Below, in pieces: positions 27,718 to 37,385 of a stretch of 64,000 bases of DNA. The stretch covers positions 17,116 through 81,115 of the forward strand of contig DCHD01000002.1 in the NCBI GenBank assembly GCA_002315565.1, given 5' to 3'. The translations under genes were made by a program, and so were the position numbers. The notes beneath the pieces are model-generated. The model ran no database searches and was not told the origin of the DNA. It saw nothing but the letters and a program-made list of their open reading frames with translations. Source of the stretch: Solobacterium sp. UBA1761. GTDB taxonomy: Bacteria > Bacillota_I > Bacilli_A > Erysipelotrichales > Erysipelotrichaceae. How positions within the stretch are numbered: the first letter of the stretch is position 1; each line of letters begins with the position of its first letter.

Positions 27718-27793
27718 GGCCAATTGGTGAAACGGTTAACACATTGCCCTCTCAAGGCAACATTCACGGGTTCGAATCCCGTATTGGTCACCA
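27718..27793 (+). tRNA. tRNA-Glu, anticodon CUC
   Basis: Hand-folded 76-nt cloverleaf. Acceptor GGCCAAT/ATTGGTC; anticodon stem TTGCC/GGCAA with loop CTCTCAA; T arm ACGGG-TTCGAAT-CCCGT; encoded CCA. Close to the B. subtilis tRNA-Glu sequence as I recall it, except C34. Confidence 0.85.
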
Positions 27794-27885: not shown

Positions 27886-28063
27886 TTTTTGTTAAACTTA
27901 AATTGCATTATAATAGCCAATCCACAATATGGCTGATGCGAAAGGAGAAAAAGTATCCGTGGACCCGCGGTACGACATAGTGGAGACATGCCGTATGCAT
28001 TTGTCTAGCTCGACTTATGCGAGAGAGTGTTCGAGGTTTCGACACAATTAGGGCTTAGGAAAA

Positions 28064-28668
28064 ATGGCAGAAGTAAAACTAGTCAACATTAAGAAGATTT
28101 ATCCGTACTGAAAGAAGACAGAAAGAAGAGAAAAGAAGACAAGGCTGAAAAGAAAGTTAATCTTCAGATTACTGATGAAGAGTTCATTGAACTGTTGGCA
28201 AGAAAGAATGATTATTACAGGGAAATGCTGAAGGAACTTACTCCTGAGGCTGTACTTCCTGGAGTTCTTGATACTATTGAAATGCTAAAGAATAAAGGCA
28301 TCAGAATAGCACTTTTCTCTGTCAGCAAGAATACTCCGGCAATACTTGAAAGGCTGAATATTACTGAAGTCTTTGATGAAATTGTATGTGGAAATGACAT
28401 CGTTAATTCCAAACCTCACTATGAAGGTTATCTGCTCGCTAGTGACAGACTTGGAATTGATCCTAGACTATGTGCGATGGTAGAAGATTCAAAAGCAGGT
28501 ATCGAAGGCGCAAAAGCTCTTTCAATGAAGACTGTTGCTATTATGGAATCAAATATCTGTAATGCTGATGTCTGGATAACTTCTACGAGTGAACTTGGAA
28601 GAATTATTAGTTTAATAAAAGAACTGCTCGGGCAGTTCTTTTATATACGGACAGATATTAGTCTATAA
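28064..28668 (+). pseudogene. Decayed sugar-utilisation remnant: frameshifted N-terminal stub of an MsmX/MalK-type ABC ATPase fused to the C-terminal ~150 codons of beta-phosphoglucomutase
   Basis: ATG 28064 gives MAEVKLVNIKKIYPY then a stop. The +2 frame continues LKEDRKKRKEDKAEKKVNLQITDEE and runs directly into FIELLARKNDYYREML...SKPHYEGY...VEDSKAGIEGA (HAD motifs III/IV). HAD motif I (DxDG) and a proper start are missing. Confidence 0.6.
28617..28645 (+). terminator. Intrinsic terminator at the end of the pgmB remnant
   Basis: AAAAGAACTGC-TCGG-GCAGTTCTTTT. It lies inside the last codons of the open frame. Confidence 0.75.
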
Positions 28669-31593: not shown

Positions 31594-31621
31594 AACCATC
31601 GTCTTAACGATGGTTTTATTT
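31594..31621 (+). terminator. Intrinsic terminator after the TSCPD gene; insulates the SipW-type operon
   Basis: AACCATCG-TCTTAA-CGATGGTT followed by TTATTT. Confidence 0.8.
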
Positions 31622-31694
31622 ACATTGTATTTTTGTGTTTGTATAATTAACTTGATACGTTATGTATTCTTTTTAATATGGAAAGGGGAACTAT

Positions 31695-32228
31695 ATGAAA
31701 AAAAGAAGTACTAAACTGATATTTGGTTTATTTGCACTAGTTGTATGTCTTGCTGTAGGCTTTGCTACTGTAAGTTCAGTTACACCAACTGCAACCGGTA
31801 GTGCCGCAATGAAAGACAGCAACCTTAATGTTGTTTTTGATGGAACACCTGTTTGTTCAGATACAACAAATGACTCTGCATCAATTGACTCAACTGATAA
31901 ACTGAAAGCTACATTCTCAGTTACAAACCTTGCAGCTGTAGGTGACACAAGAACTGTAACTTATACAGTAAAAAACAATGAGGTAGACCTTGCTGCAAAG
32001 ATTTATGTAGCAACTGCTGCCACTGATATTACAAATACTAAATCTGATTATTTTGAAGTAACTACAGATTGCACAGGAAGTTCTAATGCCAAGACTATTG
32101 CAAAGAATGGTGCAACTACAACTGTTGTTATTACTGTAAAACTTATTAAGGTTCCAACCGCTTCAGCTGACAGTTCTTCTACGATTACTGTTAAATTTAC
32201 TGCTGATCCAACACAGCCAACTGACTAA
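31695..32228 (+). CDS. Small secreted beta-rich protein with a SipW-cognate-like signal peptide (TasA/camelysin-like candidate subunit)
   Basis: SD AAGGGG. N-terminus is MKKRSTK plus a hydrophobic core ending VGFATVSSV. The mature part is Thr/Val/Ser-rich with alternating beta-strand patterns (TVTYTVKNN, TTTVVITVKLIKV, STITVKFTA). First gene of a 4-gene operon. Confidence 0.6.
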   Translation: MKKRSTKLIFGLFALVVCLAVGFATVSSVTPTATGSAAMKDSNLNVVFDGTPVCSDTTNDSASIDSTDKLKATFSVTNLAAVGDTRTVTYTVKNNEVDLAAKIYVATAATDITNTKSDYFEVTTDCTGSSNAKTIAKNGATTTVVITVKLIKVPTASADSSSTITVKFTADPTQPTD

Positions 32229-32234
32229 TCAATT

Positions 32235-33374
32235 ATGAAATCTGATAAGTTTAAAATCTATATACTTGAAGTTGTATTTGATTTTATGCTTATTTTGATG
32301 CTGTTTTATGACAAGCTTTCAAAACCTTTAGTCTGTACTGCGGTTTCTTTATTTGCTTTATTTGTATATTTTGTACAAGGGAAAAATACAGTAAAAATAA
32401 ATGGCAAAAACATTATTGTGTTTATGCTGATAGCGGGAATGATGTATCTTTGTGGATATTATCTTCTTGGATTGTATTTTGGCTTTATAAACAATAAACA
32501 GCTTCTGGTTTCTAATATAGTTACTGATTATGTGATTCCTGTAACATTGCTGATAACAGCAGGGGAATATATCAGAAGTGTATTTATTAGAAGCAATACA
32601 GAAATACGTATAAGATCATATAAAATTGATCTTTCAAACCTTCTTGTAAGTATTGGACTGATTGTTCTAGATTTTCTTATATACAATGGTATTTATGATT
32701 TAAGCAGTTTTTCGAATTTTATGACACTTGTTGGATATGTCGGATTTGCATCTTTTGCAAACAATATGTTATTCAACTACCTGTCAGAAAGATTTGATGT
32801 TAAAGGAATTATTGTATATCGACTTATCACTGTACTCTACATTTTTATCATCCCCGTAATTCCTGATGTAAGTACATATCTTAAGTCAGTACTGAGAATT
32901 ATTTATCCTTACATACTTTATCTGTTTATTGAAAAGGTCTATCCTTCAAAAACTGATAATGTTGGATACGTTTCAAAGAAAGTATCTAATGTGTTGAATG
33001 TTATTGTTATTATTCTTACCATTCTGGTTGGAATGCTTATATCCTGTAAATTCAGATATCGAATGCTGATTATAGGAACTGACAGTATGACTGGCACCAT
33101 CAATGCTGGCGATGCTGTTATCTATAAAGAATTCAAAGATGAAAGTCTGAGTGTTAATGGCGTTATAGTCTTTGATTATAATGGCATTAAAACTATTCAC
33201 CGTATTACTGATGCAAGAAAAGTAAACGGTGAAATAAGATACCTTACAAAAGGTGATGCCAACAGCAAGATTGATAACGGCTATCGTACAAGTGATGATG
33301 TTGAAGGTATTGTAAAACTAAGAATCAAATACATCGGTTATCCGACACTGTGGTTAAGATCGATGTTTGACTAA
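32235..33374 (+). CDS. SipW/ER-type (S26B) signal peptidase I fused to a ~250-aa N-terminal polytopic membrane domain
   Basis: C-terminal ~110 aa carry GTDSMTGT (catalytic Ser box), TIHRITD (His box) and TKGDANSKID (GDxN box). They are preceded by about 6-7 predicted TM helices with no His residue. Confidence 0.75.
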   Translation: MKSDKFKIYILEVVFDFMLILMLFYDKLSKPLVCTAVSLFALFVYFVQGKNTVKINGKNIIVFMLIAGMMYLCGYYLLGLYFGFINNKQLLVSNIVTDYVIPVTLLITAGEYIRSVFIRSNTEIRIRSYKIDLSNLLVSIGLIVLDFLIYNGIYDLSSFSNFMTLVGYVGFASFANNMLFNYLSERFDVKGIIVYRLITVLYIFIIPVIPDVSTYLKSVLRIIYPYILYLFIEKVYPSKTDNVGYVSKKVSNVLNVIVIILTILVGMLISCKFRYRMLIIGTDSMTGTINAGDAVIYKEFKDESLSVNGVIVFDYNGIKTIHRITDARKVNGEIRYLTKGDANSKIDNGYRTSDDVEGIVKLRIKYIGYPTLWLRSMFD

Positions 33375-33377
33375 AAA

Positions 33378-34430
33378 ATGAAGAAAGAACATGTAAACGA
33401 AAAACTTAAAAACATTGTTCTGCAGATTGTATTGATCTGTGTTTTAGTCGTGCTGTTTGTTCTTTCTCTAATTTTCTATAACAAGCTCAATCAGAACCGA
33501 TATGTCTGTTTCAATGAGTCCAGCAATATCTCTTATGATGTAAAACTTAAAGATAATCCTTTCCTTGATGAAACAAAGATTATCAGTTCTGAACAGGAAT
33601 ATCTTGATACACTCATTGAAAAGATAAACAGCACATTCAACTACTCTTTAAAGCTTGATCAGGAAGATCTTAATCTTGAATATGTTTATTATATTGATGC
33701 CAACATTGAAGTAAAAAACAGAAACAGCAGCAAATACCTTTACCGTTATTCTGAATATTTGTTGAATGAAACGGAAAAGAAAGCTGTAAATGAAGGCATA
33801 AACATATCAGAAGCAACTGTAATTGACTATAACCGTTATAACAGTAAAATAAAAGAATTTGTTAATGCATATGGGCTTGACAGTGCCGATGCGCTTCTTA
33901 CAGTTTCGCTCCATGTTGTATTACTTGACAACAACTGTCAGCTTGTTGAATGCAATCAGGATGAATCAATAGTTTCTCTTGAGATTCCTCTGACTGAAAA
34001 AACTGTAAATATTGATATTGTTGACAATCTTGTTAATTCATCTACGCGTTTCCAATTGTGTGAAGAAAACAGAATTCTAAAGAATGTTCTTTTGGTTTTT
34101 ACCGTGATTGATGTATTGGCACTAGTTATTGCTGTATACAGATTTATTGCATTAAATATCGCTTCAAAATCTGCACAGGAAAAATACAGAAGAGAACTTG
34201 GCCGAATTGTAAGCAATTATGCATCATATATTCAGGAGATTGAAGAAGAGATTGATATCAGCAGATATGAAAGCTGGAAAATCAAGAACTTCGAAGATCT
34301 TATTGAAATATCTGAAAGAATCAATCAGCCAATTCTTAAAGTAGAGAATATTGAACTTATGTATACCAATTTTGTTGTGCCTGTAAGTGACAGCAGAATA
34401 TATGTTTATAGAATAGAAGTTGAAGAATAA
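33378..34430 (+). CDS. Two-TM membrane protein of unknown function (possibly DUF5305-like)
   Basis: TM1 IVLQIVLICVLVVLFVLSLIFY, a ~200-aa extracytoplasmic segment, TM2 VLLVFTVIDVLALVIAVYRFIAL, and a ~90-aa charged C-terminal tail. The gap to each neighbouring gene is only 3-4 nt. Confidence 0.5.
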   Translation: MKKEHVNEKLKNIVLQIVLICVLVVLFVLSLIFYNKLNQNRYVCFNESSNISYDVKLKDNPFLDETKIISSEQEYLDTLIEKINSTFNYSLKLDQEDLNLEYVYYIDANIEVKNRNSSKYLYRYSEYLLNETEKKAVNEGINISEATVIDYNRYNSKIKEFVNAYGLDSADALLTVSLHVVLLDNNCQLVECNQDESIVSLEIPLTEKTVNIDIVDNLVNSSTRFQLCEENRILKNVLLVFTVIDVLALVIAVYRFIALNIASKSAQEKYRRELGRIVSNYASYIQEIEEEIDISRYESWKIKNFEDLIEISERINQPILKVENIELMYTNFVVPVSDSRIYVYRIEVEE

Positions 34431-34434
34431 CATT

Positions 34435-36864
34435 ATGAAAGAAAAGTTTAAAGGATTTAAAACCGGAAATCTTGCGATAACTTTTCTTTTTATTTTATTC
34501 TTTGCTTTTTTACAGATAGGTTATGCGAAAGTTGATTCAGTAAATCTGAATGTTGAAGGAACTACAGAGGCAATTGTTCCTGATTCAGTATTTATTTCAG
34601 ATATTGTTCCTTCAGATAATTCGTTTGCTATTATAGAAAATTATGACAAGACTGTATTTTCTGGATCAGTTATTCTTTCAGATTCTGATTTAAATTCTTC
34701 GCAGTCATTTGATATTACAATTACCAATAATTCTATCAGTTCTCAGTTCTTTAAAGAAATCAAATATCAAAGTGGTGCAGATACCTACAGCAATGAAGAC
34801 ATCGTATTCAGTCTTGATTCAAGGATGTATGACGGCTATGAATTGGCATCTGGTTCTAGCGTAACATTTAATTTGTCATTTAATTATTCTGATTCATTTA
34901 AAAGTGAACATCAGATAAATCCGATTACAGAAAGTGATATCAGACTTAAATTTGTTCTGAACTTTTACTTCAGCAGAATAATTTCATTTAATCTCAATAA
35001 TGGTGAAGGAACTGCACCTGCATCATATGAAATATCCTGTGATGCAGATCTCAATGAAATAACAGGTACTGCTCCAACAAGAACAGGATATACTTTCCAG
35101 GGATTCTATGACAGCAGTGATTATACCTCAGGACAAAAGTTCTACGATAGCCAGCTTAATGCCTCGGATATTTCAAATCTTACAATCAATCAACATGAAA
35201 CTGTTCTGTATGCTGGATGGAAACCAATTGAATATACAATTACTTATCACAGTGGTATTCTTCCTGAAGGTTATACACAGGTTACATATATTTCCAGTGG
35301 ATCAAGTCAGTATATAGATACTGGAATTAAAGGAAACAACAGTAATCTAAGTTTTGAAATCGAGTACGAATGGAACAGTTTCCCAAACGGATACAGTACT
35401 GTTTTTGGCGCATATCAAAGCGAAAATCACGTGTGCACCAGATTCTGCCAGTATCAGAATTCTATTACCTATTTCAATATAAACAGTATGGCAGGAGGTT
35501 CAACTCCATTAAATAAAACAAGGGCAATAAATACCAGATATACTGAAACATTAAAACCTAAAGGTACAAATCAGTTTACTATGACATCTGGTGGACAGAG
35601 TTCAACCGGTACAAGAACAACCGCAACCGATATAAACAATAATATATTCCTTTTCAGTTGCAGTTCCAGTGGTACTTTTTCAAATATTAAAGTATATTAT
35701 TTTGTTATATACGATAATGGCACTCCTGTAAGAAACTTCATTCCTTGTAAAAATGCAAGTGGTGTACCTGGAATGTATGATACAGTTGAAGGTAAATTCT
35801 ATGCCAGTGGTAATGGTACTTTTAATGCCGGAGCTGATGTATCAGATACTTCGATTCAGACACTTATTTATGACGTTAAAGATGAAGTATATGAAAACAG
35901 TTTTACACTTACTGGATTCAGTTTTGTAGATTGGACTTATGACAATGGAATATCAGTAACGGATTATGATGAGAAAGAAGAAGTGATCAATCTTTCATCG
36001 GTTTCTGATTCTAATTTGGATTTCTACGCAAAATGGAACAGGCAGGTAAGAATATATTTCTCAGACCTAAAGCGAACGGTTGATACTACTGAAGCAGATA
36101 TTTCAGAAATTACAGATATTATTCCTTCTAATGATTATCTGACTTTCGGTGGCTGGTATGACAGTAAGAGCGTTAAATATTTTGATGAGAATGGCGTTTA
36201 TACAAATGAGTCTATCAAAACACATTATCTGAATCTTGTAGGAAAATTCTATTTCAATGATGATGCATTTGAAAATGACTACTATTCACTTGCCTATATT
36301 CAGACAAACGGATCACAGTATGTAAATACAGGTGTCCCTGGAAACAATAACAATCTAGGATTTGAAATCGAATATGAATGGGTTTCCTTCCCAAGTGCTT
36401 ATGGTGCGCTTTTCGGATCGTATGTTGATGAAAATACAGTTTCAACCAGAATAATAATGTATAGAAACGAAAGAACATTCTTCAACATCAACTCAAAAGC
36501 AGGTGGTTCAAGTAAATATGAGGCTGCTACAAGACAATTAAATACGGTTTATGTTGATACACTTTTGCCAAGCGGCAACGATTTTGCTTATACTACAAAC
36601 TCTGTTACAACAAATGGAACAAGAACAACTGCAAACAATTCAAGTGTTCCAATTTACATTTTTGCCAACGGCAATGGAACAGGGGCAACCGTTTCTATAA
36701 AACTCTATTATTTACGTATTTATGATGGTGATAATCTGATCAGATTCTATATTCCATGTAAACGTAAATCAGATAATAAAATCGGACTATTCGACGCGGT
36801 TAATGGAACATTCAATGTATCGGTGACAAATTCTAACTTTACTGCAGGACCTCAGACTAATTAG
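34435..36864 (+). CDS. Large secreted repeat protein: SipW-like signal, N-terminal beta domain, Listeria-Bacteroides (Flg_new)-type repeats and two copies of a ~190-aa module
   Basis: Signal region ends LQIGYAKVDSV. GYTFQGFYD...YAGWKP and FGGWYD repeat signatures. The duplicated module spans 35272-35832 and 36280-36849. No LPxTG motif. Start set at ATG 34435; the track's TTG 34420 overlaps the upstream gene. Confidence 0.7.
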   Translation: MKEKFKGFKTGNLAITFLFILFFAFLQIGYAKVDSVNLNVEGTTEAIVPDSVFISDIVPSDNSFAIIENYDKTVFSGSVILSDSDLNSSQSFDITITNNSISSQFFKEIKYQSGADTYSNEDIVFSLDSRMYDGYELASGSSVTFNLSFNYSDSFKSEHQINPITESDIRLKFVLNFYFSRIISFNLNNGEGTAPASYEISCDADLNEITGTAPTRTGYTFQGFYDSSDYTSGQKFYDSQLNASDISNLTINQHETVLYAGWKPIEYTITYHSGILPEGYTQVTYISSGSSQYIDTGIKGNNSNLSFEIEYEWNSFPNGYSTVFGAYQSENHVCTRFCQYQNSITYFNINSMAGGSTPLNKTRAINTRYTETLKPKGTNQFTMTSGGQSSTGTRTTATDINNNIFLFSCSSSGTFSNIKVYYFVIYDNGTPVRNFIPCKNASGVPGMYDTVEGKFYASGNGTFNAGADVSDTSIQTLIYDVKDEVYENSFTLTGFSFVDWTYDNGISVTDYDEKEEVINLSSVSDSNLDFYAKWNRQVRIYFSDLKRTVDTTEADISEITDIIPSNDYLTFGGWYDSKSVKYFDENGVYTNESIKTHYLNLVGKFYFNDDAFENDYYSLAYIQTNGSQYVNTGVPGNNNNLGFEIEYEWVSFPSAYGALFGSYVDENTVSTRIIMYRNERTFFNINSKAGGSSKYEAATRQLNTVYVDTLLPSGNDFAYTTNSVTTNGTRTTANNSSVPIYIFANGNGTGATVSIKLYYLRIYDGDNLIRFYIPCKRKSDNKIGLFDAVNGTFNVSVTNSNFTAGPQTN
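35272..35832 (+). repeat. Copy 1 of the ~190-aa duplicated module in the large secreted protein
   Basis: YTQVTYISSGSSQYIDTG...FEIEYEW.SFP...FFNINS.AGGS...GTRTTA...IKVYY..IYD...IPCK...GMYD.V.GKF...FNAG. Confidence 0.85.
36280..36849 (+). repeat. Copy 2 of the ~190-aa duplicated module
   Basis: YYSLAYIQTNGSQYVNTG...FEIEYEWVSFP...FFNINSKAGGS...GTRTTA...IKLYYLRIYD...IPCK...GLFDAVNGTF...FTAG. Offset from copy 1 is 1008 nt. Confidence 0.85.
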
Positions 36865-36902
36865 GCTTACTCATTAGAAGTAAAATTCTGTCGTTTTGTT
36901 TG

Positions 36903-36908
36903 TATAAT
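36903..36908 (+). promoter_or_regulatory. -10 box TATAAT 6 nt before the lspA ATG; candidate leaderless promoter
   Basis: TTGTATAAT-ATATAC-ATG. No SD. Confidence 0.45.
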
Positions 36909-36914
36909 ATATAC

Positions 36915-37385
36915 ATGCGTAAACTTTTATATTTTGCAGTTGTACTGTTTATTACTGCTTTGGATCAGATTTCAAAATACCTTGCACAGGCACGTCTTGT
37001 GCTGAACTCAAAAGTATGGATTATTGATAACTTTTTTGCACTGTTTCTTACACATAATGATGGAGTTGCTTTTTCAATGCTGGAAGGTAAACAGCTTCTT
37101 TTAAAGTTTATTACTGTTGTTGCAATAGGAATATTCGTTTACCTGATTGTTGATGCCGATAAAAAGAAAAACTGGTTTGAAGTAGGCTGTATATTGATGA
37201 TGTTTGGCGGCTGTATCGGAAACTTTATTGACCGTATCCAGTATTCATATGTTATTGATTATTTTTCATTCAGATTCTTCGGCTGGGATTTTGCCGTATT
37301 CAATGTAGCAGATTGTTTCATTACAGTAGGAGCTATTCTCTACATAATTGTTTTATTTAAGGAAATGAAAAATGCCAAAGATTAA
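36915..37385 (+). CDS. lspA: Lipoprotein signal peptidase II
   Basis: Motifs NDGVAFSM and FNVADCFITVG with four TMs. Start set at ATG 36915. The track's TTG-TAT-AAT at 36900 looks like a -10 box rather than coding sequence. Confidence 0.9.
   Translation: MRKLLYFAVVLFITALDQISKYLAQARLVLNSKVWIIDNFFALFLTHNDGVAFSMLEGKQLLLKFITVVAIGIFVYLIVDADKKKNWFEVGCILMMFGGCIGNFIDRIQYSYVIDYFSFRFFGWDFAVFNVADCFITVGAILYIIVLFKEMKNAKD

Follow-up and report, generated by a model that had tools for sequence, protein, structure and literature searches.

Here, we report that a four-gene operon of Solobacterium sp. UBA1761 belongs to the known kind of filament loci that combine a signal peptidase I with a DUF5305 protein, and that AbpX-type loci are its closest counterparts. 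The operon is located in a stretch of 64,000 nucleotides (contig DCHD01000002.1, positions 17,116 to 81,115), which is called the window throughout and to which all coordinates refer unless another locus is named. It encodes a small secreted protein (P1), a signal peptidase fused to a polytopic membrane domain (P2), a DUF5305 accessory protein (P3) and a large secreted protein (P4). Very probably, P2 and P3 act as a pair dedicated to the processing of P1 and P4. P1 is most likely a small fibre subunit and P4 a large, lectin-bearing adhesin. The locus is set apart by the unannotated subunit family, a distinct N-terminal tag, the lack of a calcium signature, the lack of anchor and regulator genes, and the lectin-bearing large subunit. 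The operon comprises the following open reading frames:

31695 to 32228, plus strand: P1, candidate small secreted subunit, 177 residues
32235 to 33374, plus strand: P2, polytopic signal peptidase I, 379 residues
33378 to 34430, plus strand: P3, DUF5305 accessory protein (PF17231), 350 residues
34435 to 36864, plus strand: P4, large secreted protein, 809 residues from its ATG, the form used in public gene calls

The four frames are co-directional, fill the region 31695-36864 upstream of lspA, and are separated by gaps of 6 (P1/P2), 3 (P2/P3) and 4 nt (P3/P4). An earlier interpretation based on the letters of the DNA, here called the sequence-only reading, had described exactly this arrangement behind a terminator, and both the reading frames and the hairpin bear it out. 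It assigned 810 residues to P4. A large secreted frame is indeed present, and its length is 809 residues from the ATG, or 814 if an upstream TTG at 34420 serves as the start.

Conservation of the gene set

A scan of 185,579 species-representative genomes yielded 35 related loci, and a single metagenome locus raised the number to 36. All 35 scanned loci stem from metagenome-assembled genomes (MAGs), mostly of gut, rumen and faecal samples. The MAGs are labelled as Bacilli, Erysipelotrichaceae, Mollicutes/Tenericutes, Clostridia or Firmicutes, and one contig was binned as Muribaculaceae.

The order subunit, fused peptidase, DUF5305 protein, with the P3 gene immediately following the P2 gene, is found in 29 of the 36 loci, and contig ends truncate another two. 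This leaves five loci, which are either additional paralogs in genomes that have the module elsewhere or arrays within one MAG. A large protein bearing the N-terminal motif described below is encoded in at least 19 loci, either after P3 or divergently upstream of P1, and its C-terminal domains vary. Altogether, the gene set is shared with about 30 other species-level genomes, so that the co-occurrence of the four genes, for which the sequence-only reading had called, was indeed found. Such conserved co-occurrence argues for a dedicated relationship between peptidase and substrates. In the same direction points locus L004, which holds two complete, divergent modules that are paralogs; a separate peptidase-DUF5305 pair and a separate motif-bearing subunit belong to each, which argues for dedicated pairs. 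The linkage to lspA is not conserved elsewhere; in L003, for example, the module adjoins ychF.

A different arrangement was observed in MAG RGIG6403 (L008 5926-14167; L010; L018; L019). It carries arrays of two to four tandem paralogs of 401-805 residues, with near-identical P1-like N-terminal domains (MKKTNKIIL..LLLGIGYAAIQNITLNISG..) and variable C-terminal extensions. No peptidase gene lies within 8 kb of these arrays. They may represent a variable repertoire of surface proteins that is served by a peptidase encoded elsewhere.

A common N-terminal tag of P1 and P4

P1 and P4 share a motif that spans the end of the signal peptide and the segment behind it, LG[IV]GYA-x-V-x-x-V-x-L-x-[IV]-x-G. 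In its general layout, a signal peptide ending in G-x-G-[YF]-A is followed by V-x-x-V-x-L-x-[IV]-x-G-[ST]-[AT]. BLASTP of P1 against the N-terminus of P4 gives no significant similarity. Profile comparison by hhalign of the P1 family with the family of P4-like N-termini gives a probability of 99.1% and E = 6e-18, and the similarity is confined to the first 45 residues or so.

When a hidden Markov model (HMM) of the motif was applied to the 64-kb window, two proteins were detected only, P1 and P4. The model finds one small protein (about 165-200 residues) and usually one large protein (370-900 residues) in almost all related loci. That P1 and P4 are the sole carriers in the window is in good agreement with the proposal, made in the sequence-only reading, of a dedicated peptidase with cognate substrates. 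The SipW-cognate signal TIGR04088, suggested there as a check, is absent: neither P1 nor P4 gave an NCBIfam match to it at E <= 1. With a slash at the putative cleavage site, the motif of P1 and P4 reads G-x-G-[YF]-A/V-x-S-x-V-x-L; its layout resembles that of the TIGR04088 signal, yet it is distinct.

The proposed processing pair P2 and P3

P2 consists of two parts, with predicted features as follows:

32235 to 32969, plus strand: N-terminal polytopic membrane domain, residues 1-245, about 8 hydropathy spans, followed by an anchor span at residues 253-271
32976 to 33371, plus strand: catalytic domain of endoplasmic reticulum (ER)/archaeal-type signal peptidase I, residues 248-379, by TIGR02228
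33084-33086, 33198-33200 and 33255-33257, plus strand: predicted catalytic residues Ser284, His322 and Asp341

Residues 248-372 pass the cut-off of TIGR02228 (sigpep_I_arch; MEROPS S26B) with 58.5 against 51.85 bits, and the score against Pfam Peptidase_S26, 16.6 bits, stays below its cut-off. The SM, GD, HR and TKGDxN..D boxes are invariant across 24 P2 homologs. In detail, S284-M285, H322-R323, T338-K-G-D341-x-N343 and D347 are invariant in these 24 and at least 90% conserved in 33. Because of this invariance, P2 should be an active enzyme with a Ser/His mechanism. LepB-type signal peptidases carry a Lys where the ER/archaeal type has the His. The previous assignment of P2 as an ER/archaeal-type enzyme with DSM, IHRI and GDAN boxes, fused to a polytopic domain, is confirmed by these results.

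Its designation as a SipW-type peptidase has to be dropped. Against the SipW equivalog NF046067, P2 reaches 37.5 bits at a cut-off of 190, and about nine transmembrane spans are predicted ahead of the catalytic domain, whereas the criterion for SipW is one or two. Judged by these measures, P2 is not a SipW ortholog. The same fusion is present in homologs of 371-383 residues in 33 loci.

The membrane domain of P2 has no match in Pfam. Across the 24 homologs, Y76, G83, P102, E111, R114, N177, Y182 and P225 do not vary, and conservation of D146 reaches at least 90%. The invariant polar residues argue for a role beyond anchoring, and the E-x-x-R pair within one of the spans is a hint of catalysis or substrate binding.

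The hydropathy profile of P3 suggests four segments:

33414-33470, plus strand: first transmembrane segment, residues 13-31
33471-34082, plus strand: outside loop, 204 residues
34083-34139, plus strand: second transmembrane segment, residues 236-254
34140-34427, plus strand: cytoplasmic tail, 96 residues

This is the two-span protein with an outside loop of some 200 residues and a cytoplasmic tail that had been expected. DUF5305, named earlier as a profile worth searching, is matched by residues 126-344 with 33.5 bits (cut-off 29), over profile positions 4-217 of 217. Two transmembrane segments around an outside domain, followed by a cytoplasmic C-terminal domain, is also the layout published for the DUF5305 accessory protein.

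The DUF5305 homologs located 3' of P2-like genes are 350-836 residues long, with about 500 residues in several (L035 9753-12263; L023, L025, L026, L030, L037). Judging from these lengths, the accessory protein acquires extra domains in some lineages.

The small secreted protein P1

P1 is divided into three regions:

31695 to 31766, plus strand: signal peptide, residues 1-24, with a hydrophobic span at 8-26 and ending at the putative cleavage site G-x-G-[YF]-A
31767 to 31823, plus strand: post-cleavage segment, residues 25-43, candidate donor strand, family consensus VVSxVxLTIsGTA
31824 to 32225, plus strand: beta-sandwich core, residues 44-177, eleven strands, predicted local distance difference test (pLDDT) 96-98 in the AlphaFold2 (AF2) model

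In the family alignment, G22 is invariant and G20, Y23 and A24 are at least 90% conserved, which places them among the columns of lowest entropy. Cleavage presumably takes place directly behind this G-x-G-[YF]-A. In the segment that follows, the conserved residues alternate (V29, L31, I33, G35, A37). Mature P1 consists to 54% of Thr, Ser, Val and Ala; it has an isoelectric point (pI) of 4.65 and contains 10.5% Asp plus Glu. Together with the all-beta model described below, this composition substantiates the earlier view of P1 as a secreted, Thr/Val/Ser-rich beta protein.

An exhaustive profile search assigns at least 1771 clusters at 50% identity to the P1 family, 786 of them at E <= 1e-10. 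A first, word-indexed search for homologs had given 6 proteins only and understated the size of the family. Most members are 160-185 residues long, and some have C-terminal extensions. Every named member is called 'hypothetical', and none of the clusters has a Pfam assignment. No relatives of P1 were found in Pfam, NCBIfam, PHROG or the PDB sequences.

The AF2 model of P1, computed as a single chain from 117 homologs, is an all-beta sandwich with a pLDDT of 90.7. Residues 25-45 have no secondary structure in this monomer, and the first 20 or so mature residues have a pLDDT of 68-87. Mean-field direct-coupling analysis (DCA) of 250 family members (effective number of sequences, Meff, 215) reveals that residues 27-41 and the C-terminal strand coevolve in antiparallel orientation (i+j = 199, z = 4.6), a signal equal to that of the core strand pairs which are built in the model. 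No other part of P1 pairs better with the C-terminal strand. Residues 27-41 also coevolve with strand 71-80. About 17 of the top 50 Foldseek matches of the model are subunits of donor-strand pili (CfaB, the 0406 thread, the TasA fibre, Fim, Pap, CS17, Csu). The match to the TasA fibre 8aur is weak, with a template modelling (TM) score of 0.28 and E = 1.4e-2.

The notion of a TasA-like P1 can be kept in part. Weak fold matches, including the TasA fibre and the 0406 thread, speak for it; membership in the Peptidase_M73 family (PF12389) does not hold, as P1 has no match to this profile at E <= 1. By sequence, P1 is not a member of the TasA/camelysin family. In control searches with Peptidase_M73, TasA of B. 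subtilis reached E = 2e-37 and AbpX only E = 0.07. Since AbpX itself scores so poorly, the failure of this profile is compatible with membership of P1 in the wider TasA superfamily.

Two further assignments were considered and rejected. As the operon adjoins lspA, P1 might have been a lipoprotein, but its Cys18 (LVVC) is not conserved in the family consensus LVLVLGVGYA and there is no lipobox. P1 and P4 as substrates of a sortase can be discarded as well, since they end in ..ADPTQPTD and ..FTAGPQTN without an LPXTG motif.

The second module of L004 (6-3034, minus strand) contains a gene for a 231-residue protein with the N-terminus ..LAVGFAAFSDSLTIDGTA. Next come the genes for a fused peptidase that resembles P2 (25% identity) and for a DUF5305 protein. 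With its AFSD, the 231-residue protein is closer to the signal region of TasA/camelysin than P1 is. In sequence, it could bridge the gap from the P1 family to TasA.

The large secreted protein P4

The following regions were distinguished in P4:

34435 to 34569, plus strand: signal peptide and shared motif (FLQIGYA/KVDSVNLNVEGTT), residues 1-45, N-terminal HMM E = 5e-5
34570 to 34974, plus strand: N-terminal beta-rich domain, residues 46-180, with conserved counterparts in large proteins from other loci, model pLDDT 45-74
34975 to 35226, plus strand: Flg_new (Listeria-Bacteroides) repeat 1, residues 181-264, best stretch of PF09479 at 188-250, TIGR02543 at 219-270
35257 to 35844, plus strand: LamG/ConA-like lectin module 1, residues 275-470, pLDDT 70-97, by Foldseek
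35851 to 36252, plus strand: two more Flg_new-like repeats, residues 473-606, boundaries set by eye from the repeat motif, low-confidence model
36268 to 36861, plus strand: LamG/ConA-like lectin module 2, residues 612-809, pLDDT 60-96, same fold matches as module 1

Both the Listeria-Bacteroides repeats and the duplicated module of about 190 residues had been recognised before, and both are corroborated. Flg_new is matched in two stretches with 34.3 bits (cut-off 27) and TIGR02543 with 23.9 (cut-off 20.95), and the two copies of the module are 46% identical (E = 3e-50). The P4 alignment comprises 46 sequences, and the structure model is poor outside the two lectin modules. In the PDB, Foldseek matches the modules to laminin LG4-5 with E = 1e-9, and single domains of agrin, neurexin LNS and the sialic-acid-binding CBM40 are found at target-normalised TM-scores (TMt) of 0.5-0.62. 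In BFVD, phage ConA-like lectin proteins are matched with E = 2e-14 and a TMt of up to 0.78, the best being Siphoviridae proteins. Neither the isolated lectin module nor the N-terminal domain of P4 gave a significant match in Pfam. The claim that P4 is an adhesin holds up in so far as the modelled lectin-type domains fit this role; the position at the tip of a fibre, which had been claimed along with it, is presumptive.

The consensus of the LamG-like module reads LPxGYTxxEYIESTGTQYIDTG ... LYDxVxGxFYxNxGxGxFxAG. Many proteins of about 563 residues (P0258-P0313) on contigs of 15-40 kb contain it, some of these proteins together with Sipho_Gp37 or Laminin_G_3 domains, and it is also found in Siphoviridae proteins at 20-24% identity. 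This distribution suggests that the lectin module is exchanged between phage receptor-binding proteins and bacterial adhesins.

Comparison with characterised filament loci

AbpX, AbpA, Tafi, the 0406 threads, CanA and TasA have been united in one TasA superfamily, defined by a jelly-roll core together with donor-strand complementation at the N-terminus, the mode by which AbpX polymerises (bioRxiv 10.64898/2026.01.04.697558). AbpX loci occur in bacteria and archaea and encode the subunit, a signal peptidase I with ten transmembrane segments, a DUF5305 accessory protein, minor subunits and tip proteins (bioRxiv 10.64898/2026.01.04.697558). In Haloarcula, the signal peptidase I TafD is required for the processing of the pilin TafA and for the formation of Tafi filaments; the DUF5305 protein TafG is the proposed partner of TafD, and homologous clusters exist in Thermococcales and Archaeoglobales (PMC11821415; PMC12337348). 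The sequence-only reading had regarded a fused peptidase, a bitopic partner and a giant second substrate as unusual parts of the operon. On the contrary, these are published hallmarks of AbpX- and Tafi-type loci.

The agreement with the AbpX loci extends over the whole gene set. Pyrodictium abyssi AbpX and its homologs come with a subunit, a polytopic signal peptidase I of the TIGR02228 type, a DUF5305 protein and a larger tip or minor protein with the same N-terminal strand. The peptidases were compared by published description, and the ten reported transmembrane segments correspond to about nine predicted in P2. The cleavage site of AbpX, ..LTYA/QWSETLSLSATIST, resembles that of the P1 family, ..GVGYA/VVSxVxLTIsGTA, and ..TYA/QWSETLSLSATIS (site TYA/QW) aligns with ..GYA/VVSxVxLTIsGTA. 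When the signal-plus-strand region of P1 is compared by hhalign with the cleavage site and donor strand of AbpX, E = 0.9-1.7e-3 is obtained, a weak match that relies on a single AbpX sequence. In the same low-power comparison, TasA and AbpX reach E = 1e-3 over the equivalent region. All hhalign comparisons of the P1 family with single TasA and AbpX sequences are of this weak kind, and a metagenome scan for AbpX relatives from which a family profile could be built found none. The mature proteins are of similar size (163 residues in AbpX, 153 in P1) and both are acidic. The N-terminal extension is unstructured in the monomer predictions of both, and the register between the N-segment and the C-terminal strand of P1 matches the hairpin used for self-complementation of AbpX.

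There are differences, too. No similarity between the core sequences of AbpX and P1 is detectable, and AbpX is more acidic, with about 15% Asp plus Glu and a pI of about 4.0, as compared to 10.5% and 4.65 in P1. In contrast to the bacterial abpX loci described so far, the P1-P4 locus has no SLH or LPXTG anchor, no sortase, and no cyclic di-GMP or two-component genes.

The Tafi locus (tafA-G) resembles the operon in the signal peptidase I TafD next to the DUF5305 protein TafG, in its strand-donating pilins, and in its variable large structural or adhesin proteins. Unlike P1 and P4, the Tafi pilins of most haloarchaea carry twin-arginine translocation (Tat) signal peptides. In TafD there are four transmembrane segments and an extra C-terminal domain, whereas P2 has an N-terminal domain with about nine. 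Tafi loci also include a transcription regulator and belong to archaea, and P1 and P4 find no counterpart in them by sequence.

The tapA-sipW-tasA operon of Bacillus subtilis likewise encodes an ER-type signal peptidase I together with two cognate secreted substrates, and its TasA fibre (8aur) is among the fold matches of P1. TasA is the major fibre subunit and polymerises by donor-strand exchange, and its partner is an accessory or nucleating protein. In contrast to the operon studied here, SipW has no fused polytopic domain, there is no DUF5305 gene, and TapA is unrelated to P4. The best whole-chain match of the P1 model is the 0406 thread of Sulfolobus acidocaldarius (7pnb), a donor-strand-complemented filament subunit (TM-score 0.47/0.45, 188 columns, probability 1.00); it differs in being archaeal and in having only 12% identity to P1, at an E-value of only 1e-2.

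Proposed mechanism and alternative explanations

From the above, the following course of events is proposed. P1 and P4 would be exported via Sec-type signal peptides, both ending at G-x-G-[YF]-A, and P2, together with the bitopic P3, would cut both precursors behind this site. Cleavage would release the conserved amphipathic N-terminal strand V-x-S-x-V-x-L-x-I-x-G-x-A, which could then insert into the beta-sandwich of an adjacent P1 molecule, beside its C-terminal strand. Repetition of this step would yield a P1 polymer. P4, bearing the same strand, would plug into the P1 acceptor groove and so be placed at the fibre end or decorate the fibre, displaying its two LamG/ConA-like lectin domains for glycans on the host, on food particles or on other cells. 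We lean towards this complete model, with modest confidence.

We infer the polymerisation of P1 from the genomic context, the fold matches to donor-strand pilins, an N-terminal strand that stays unpaired in the monomer model although it coevolves with the C-terminal one, and the N-terminal similarity to AbpX. We likewise infer that processing depends on P2 and P3, that the strand is inserted between molecules, and where P4 is positioned and what it binds.

Several observations weigh against a P1 polymer. With respect to sequence, hhalign of the P1 core against the core of the P4 N-terminal domain gives only E = 8e-3 and a probability of 5%, and P1, like P3, P4 and the P1-family profile, has chance-level matches only in the PDB sequences. 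Peptidase_M73 is not among the 25 most-matched Pfam families of 117 P1-family members, which weakly match generic Ig/E-set families instead. P1 also lacks the calcium signature of AbpX, an aromatic residue at mature position 2 and an acidic one at position 4; it starts with T-V-S-S, and its family with V-V-S-x. The distant relatives L035 and L037 (YA/ALTDTL) do have the acidic position. On the structural side, none of the Foldseek matches of P1 attains E <= 1e-3, their TM-scores are below 0.5, and the AbpX structures 9sj2 and 9rhp are not among the top 50. Next to strand 71-80, the N-segment could run in either direction (parallel z = 3.3, antiparallel z = 3.1), and by coevolution a donated strand is indistinguishable from the protein's own first strand. 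Finally, the operon encodes no cell-wall or membrane anchor for a fibre.

In a possible, though doubtful, alternative, the peptidase is dedicated to P1 and P4 and neither of them polymerises. Both would then be monomeric and secreted or surface-located, P1 as a coat or binding protein and P4 as a lectin adhesin, and the N-segment would serve as each protein's own first strand and as a recognition determinant for the specialised peptidase. The short linker between the N-segment of P1 and the next strand makes an intramolecular beta-arch sterically possible, the DCA contacts fit such a strand equally well, and residues 31-40 have a fairly high pLDDT (87) in the monomer. The Pfam-level similarity to ordinary Ig/E-set domains and the weakness of the pilin matches would also be explained. 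However, AF2 leaves the strand out of the monomer although it coevolves as strongly as the core strands do. Moreover, the N-segment is conserved between P1 and P4 though their cores have diverged beyond recognition, which is explained more easily by a common acceptor site than by two private folds, and the characterised systems with signal peptidase I and DUF5305 protein all make donor-strand filaments.

It is improbable that P2 is simply the general housekeeping signal peptidase I of the cell, encoded beside lspA and next to P1 and P4 as abundant substrates. The strict synteny with motif-bearing genes in about 30 species, the restriction of the motif to two proteins in the 64-kb window, and the two peptidase-DUF5305 pairs of L004, each with its own motif-bearing subunit, all speak against this. 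The position of the operon amid housekeeping genes, directly 5' of lspA without a terminator and with typical GC content, would suit such a role, but the different contexts in other genomes, such as the ychF neighbourhood of L003, render the lspA linkage incidental. It may be added in favour of a housekeeping P2 that small-genome Bacilli, Mollicutes-like and other Bacillota MAGs make up the relatives, and that no other signal peptidase I was seen in the window.

An origin as cargo of a phage or mobile element, with P4 as a receptor-binding or tail-fibre-like protein in a prophage or island remnant, is very improbable: the occurrence of the lectin module in the many 563-residue proteins on 15-40 kb contigs, some with Sipho_Gp37 or Laminin_G_3, and its best BFVD matches in Siphoviridae are set against a P1-P2-P3 core that is chromosomal and syntenic across bacterial MAGs, with the LamG-like module as the only shared part, no PHROG matches for P1, P3 and P4, and operon borders without integrase, tRNA junction, repeats or deviant composition.

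Returning to the model of donated strands, a more far-reaching idea is put forward tentatively. The P1 family might be an unrecognised clade of chaperone-free donor-strand 'threads' of host-associated bacteria. Through the conserved polar residues in the membrane domain of P2 (E111, R114, D146 and N177), P2 and P3 might do more than process precursors and constitute a membrane platform which couples cleavage to strand insertion. This platform might also load onto the fibre a choice of large subunits with lectin tips, the modules of which occur in phage receptor-binding proteins as well.

If the proposed mechanism is true, the fibre system of signal peptidase I and DUF5305 protein is not limited to extremophilic archaea and a few cultured Firmicutes but spans many uncultured Bacillota of gut and rumen, among them small-genome Bacilli and lineages that carry the label Mollicutes or Tenericutes. 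The present locus is an expected, yet useful, extension of known filament loci into these organisms. It yields a candidate family of fibre subunits, so far unannotated, and a candidate glycan-binding adhesin. The N-terminal tag can be searched for in any genome, where it would mark the substrates of P2-type peptidases, and the compact four-gene unit should suit heterologous expression.

Transcription signals and flanking regions

Upstream of P1, three signals were annotated:

31594 to 31621, plus strand: intrinsic terminator of the upstream TSCPD gene, 9-bp stem, 4-nt loop and T-rich tail, forming the 5' boundary of the operon
31619-31647, plus strand: promoter-like site TTTACA-17-TATAAT, 11/12 matches, by consensus match only
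31680-31689, plus strand: strong ribosome-binding site GGAAAGGGGA, downstream of the promoter-like site

The terminator hairpin (31594-31615) has a folding energy of -12.2 kcal/mol (z = -4.3 against shuffled sequences) and is, with its T-tail, the sole good terminator-like site of the plus strand near the start of the operon. No terminator was found between P4 and lspA. An extended -10-like element, TGTATAAT, is located just 5' of the lspA start (window 36865-36915). lspA may be transcribed both by read-through from P4 and from its own promoter.

The near flanks consist of housekeeping genes (TldD/PmbA, TSCPD, lspA, rluD, rhomboid). The GC content of the operon, 0.30-0.37, is the same as that of the flanks, and a horizontally acquired island was ruled out because of this matching composition. 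Further upstream, a tRNA-Glu(CTC) gene (27718-27793, plus strand) is followed by a malK-I RNA element (27902-28069, plus strand; Rfam RF03069, 83.6 bits at a gathering score of 60.3). These two are the sole Rfam matches in the window.

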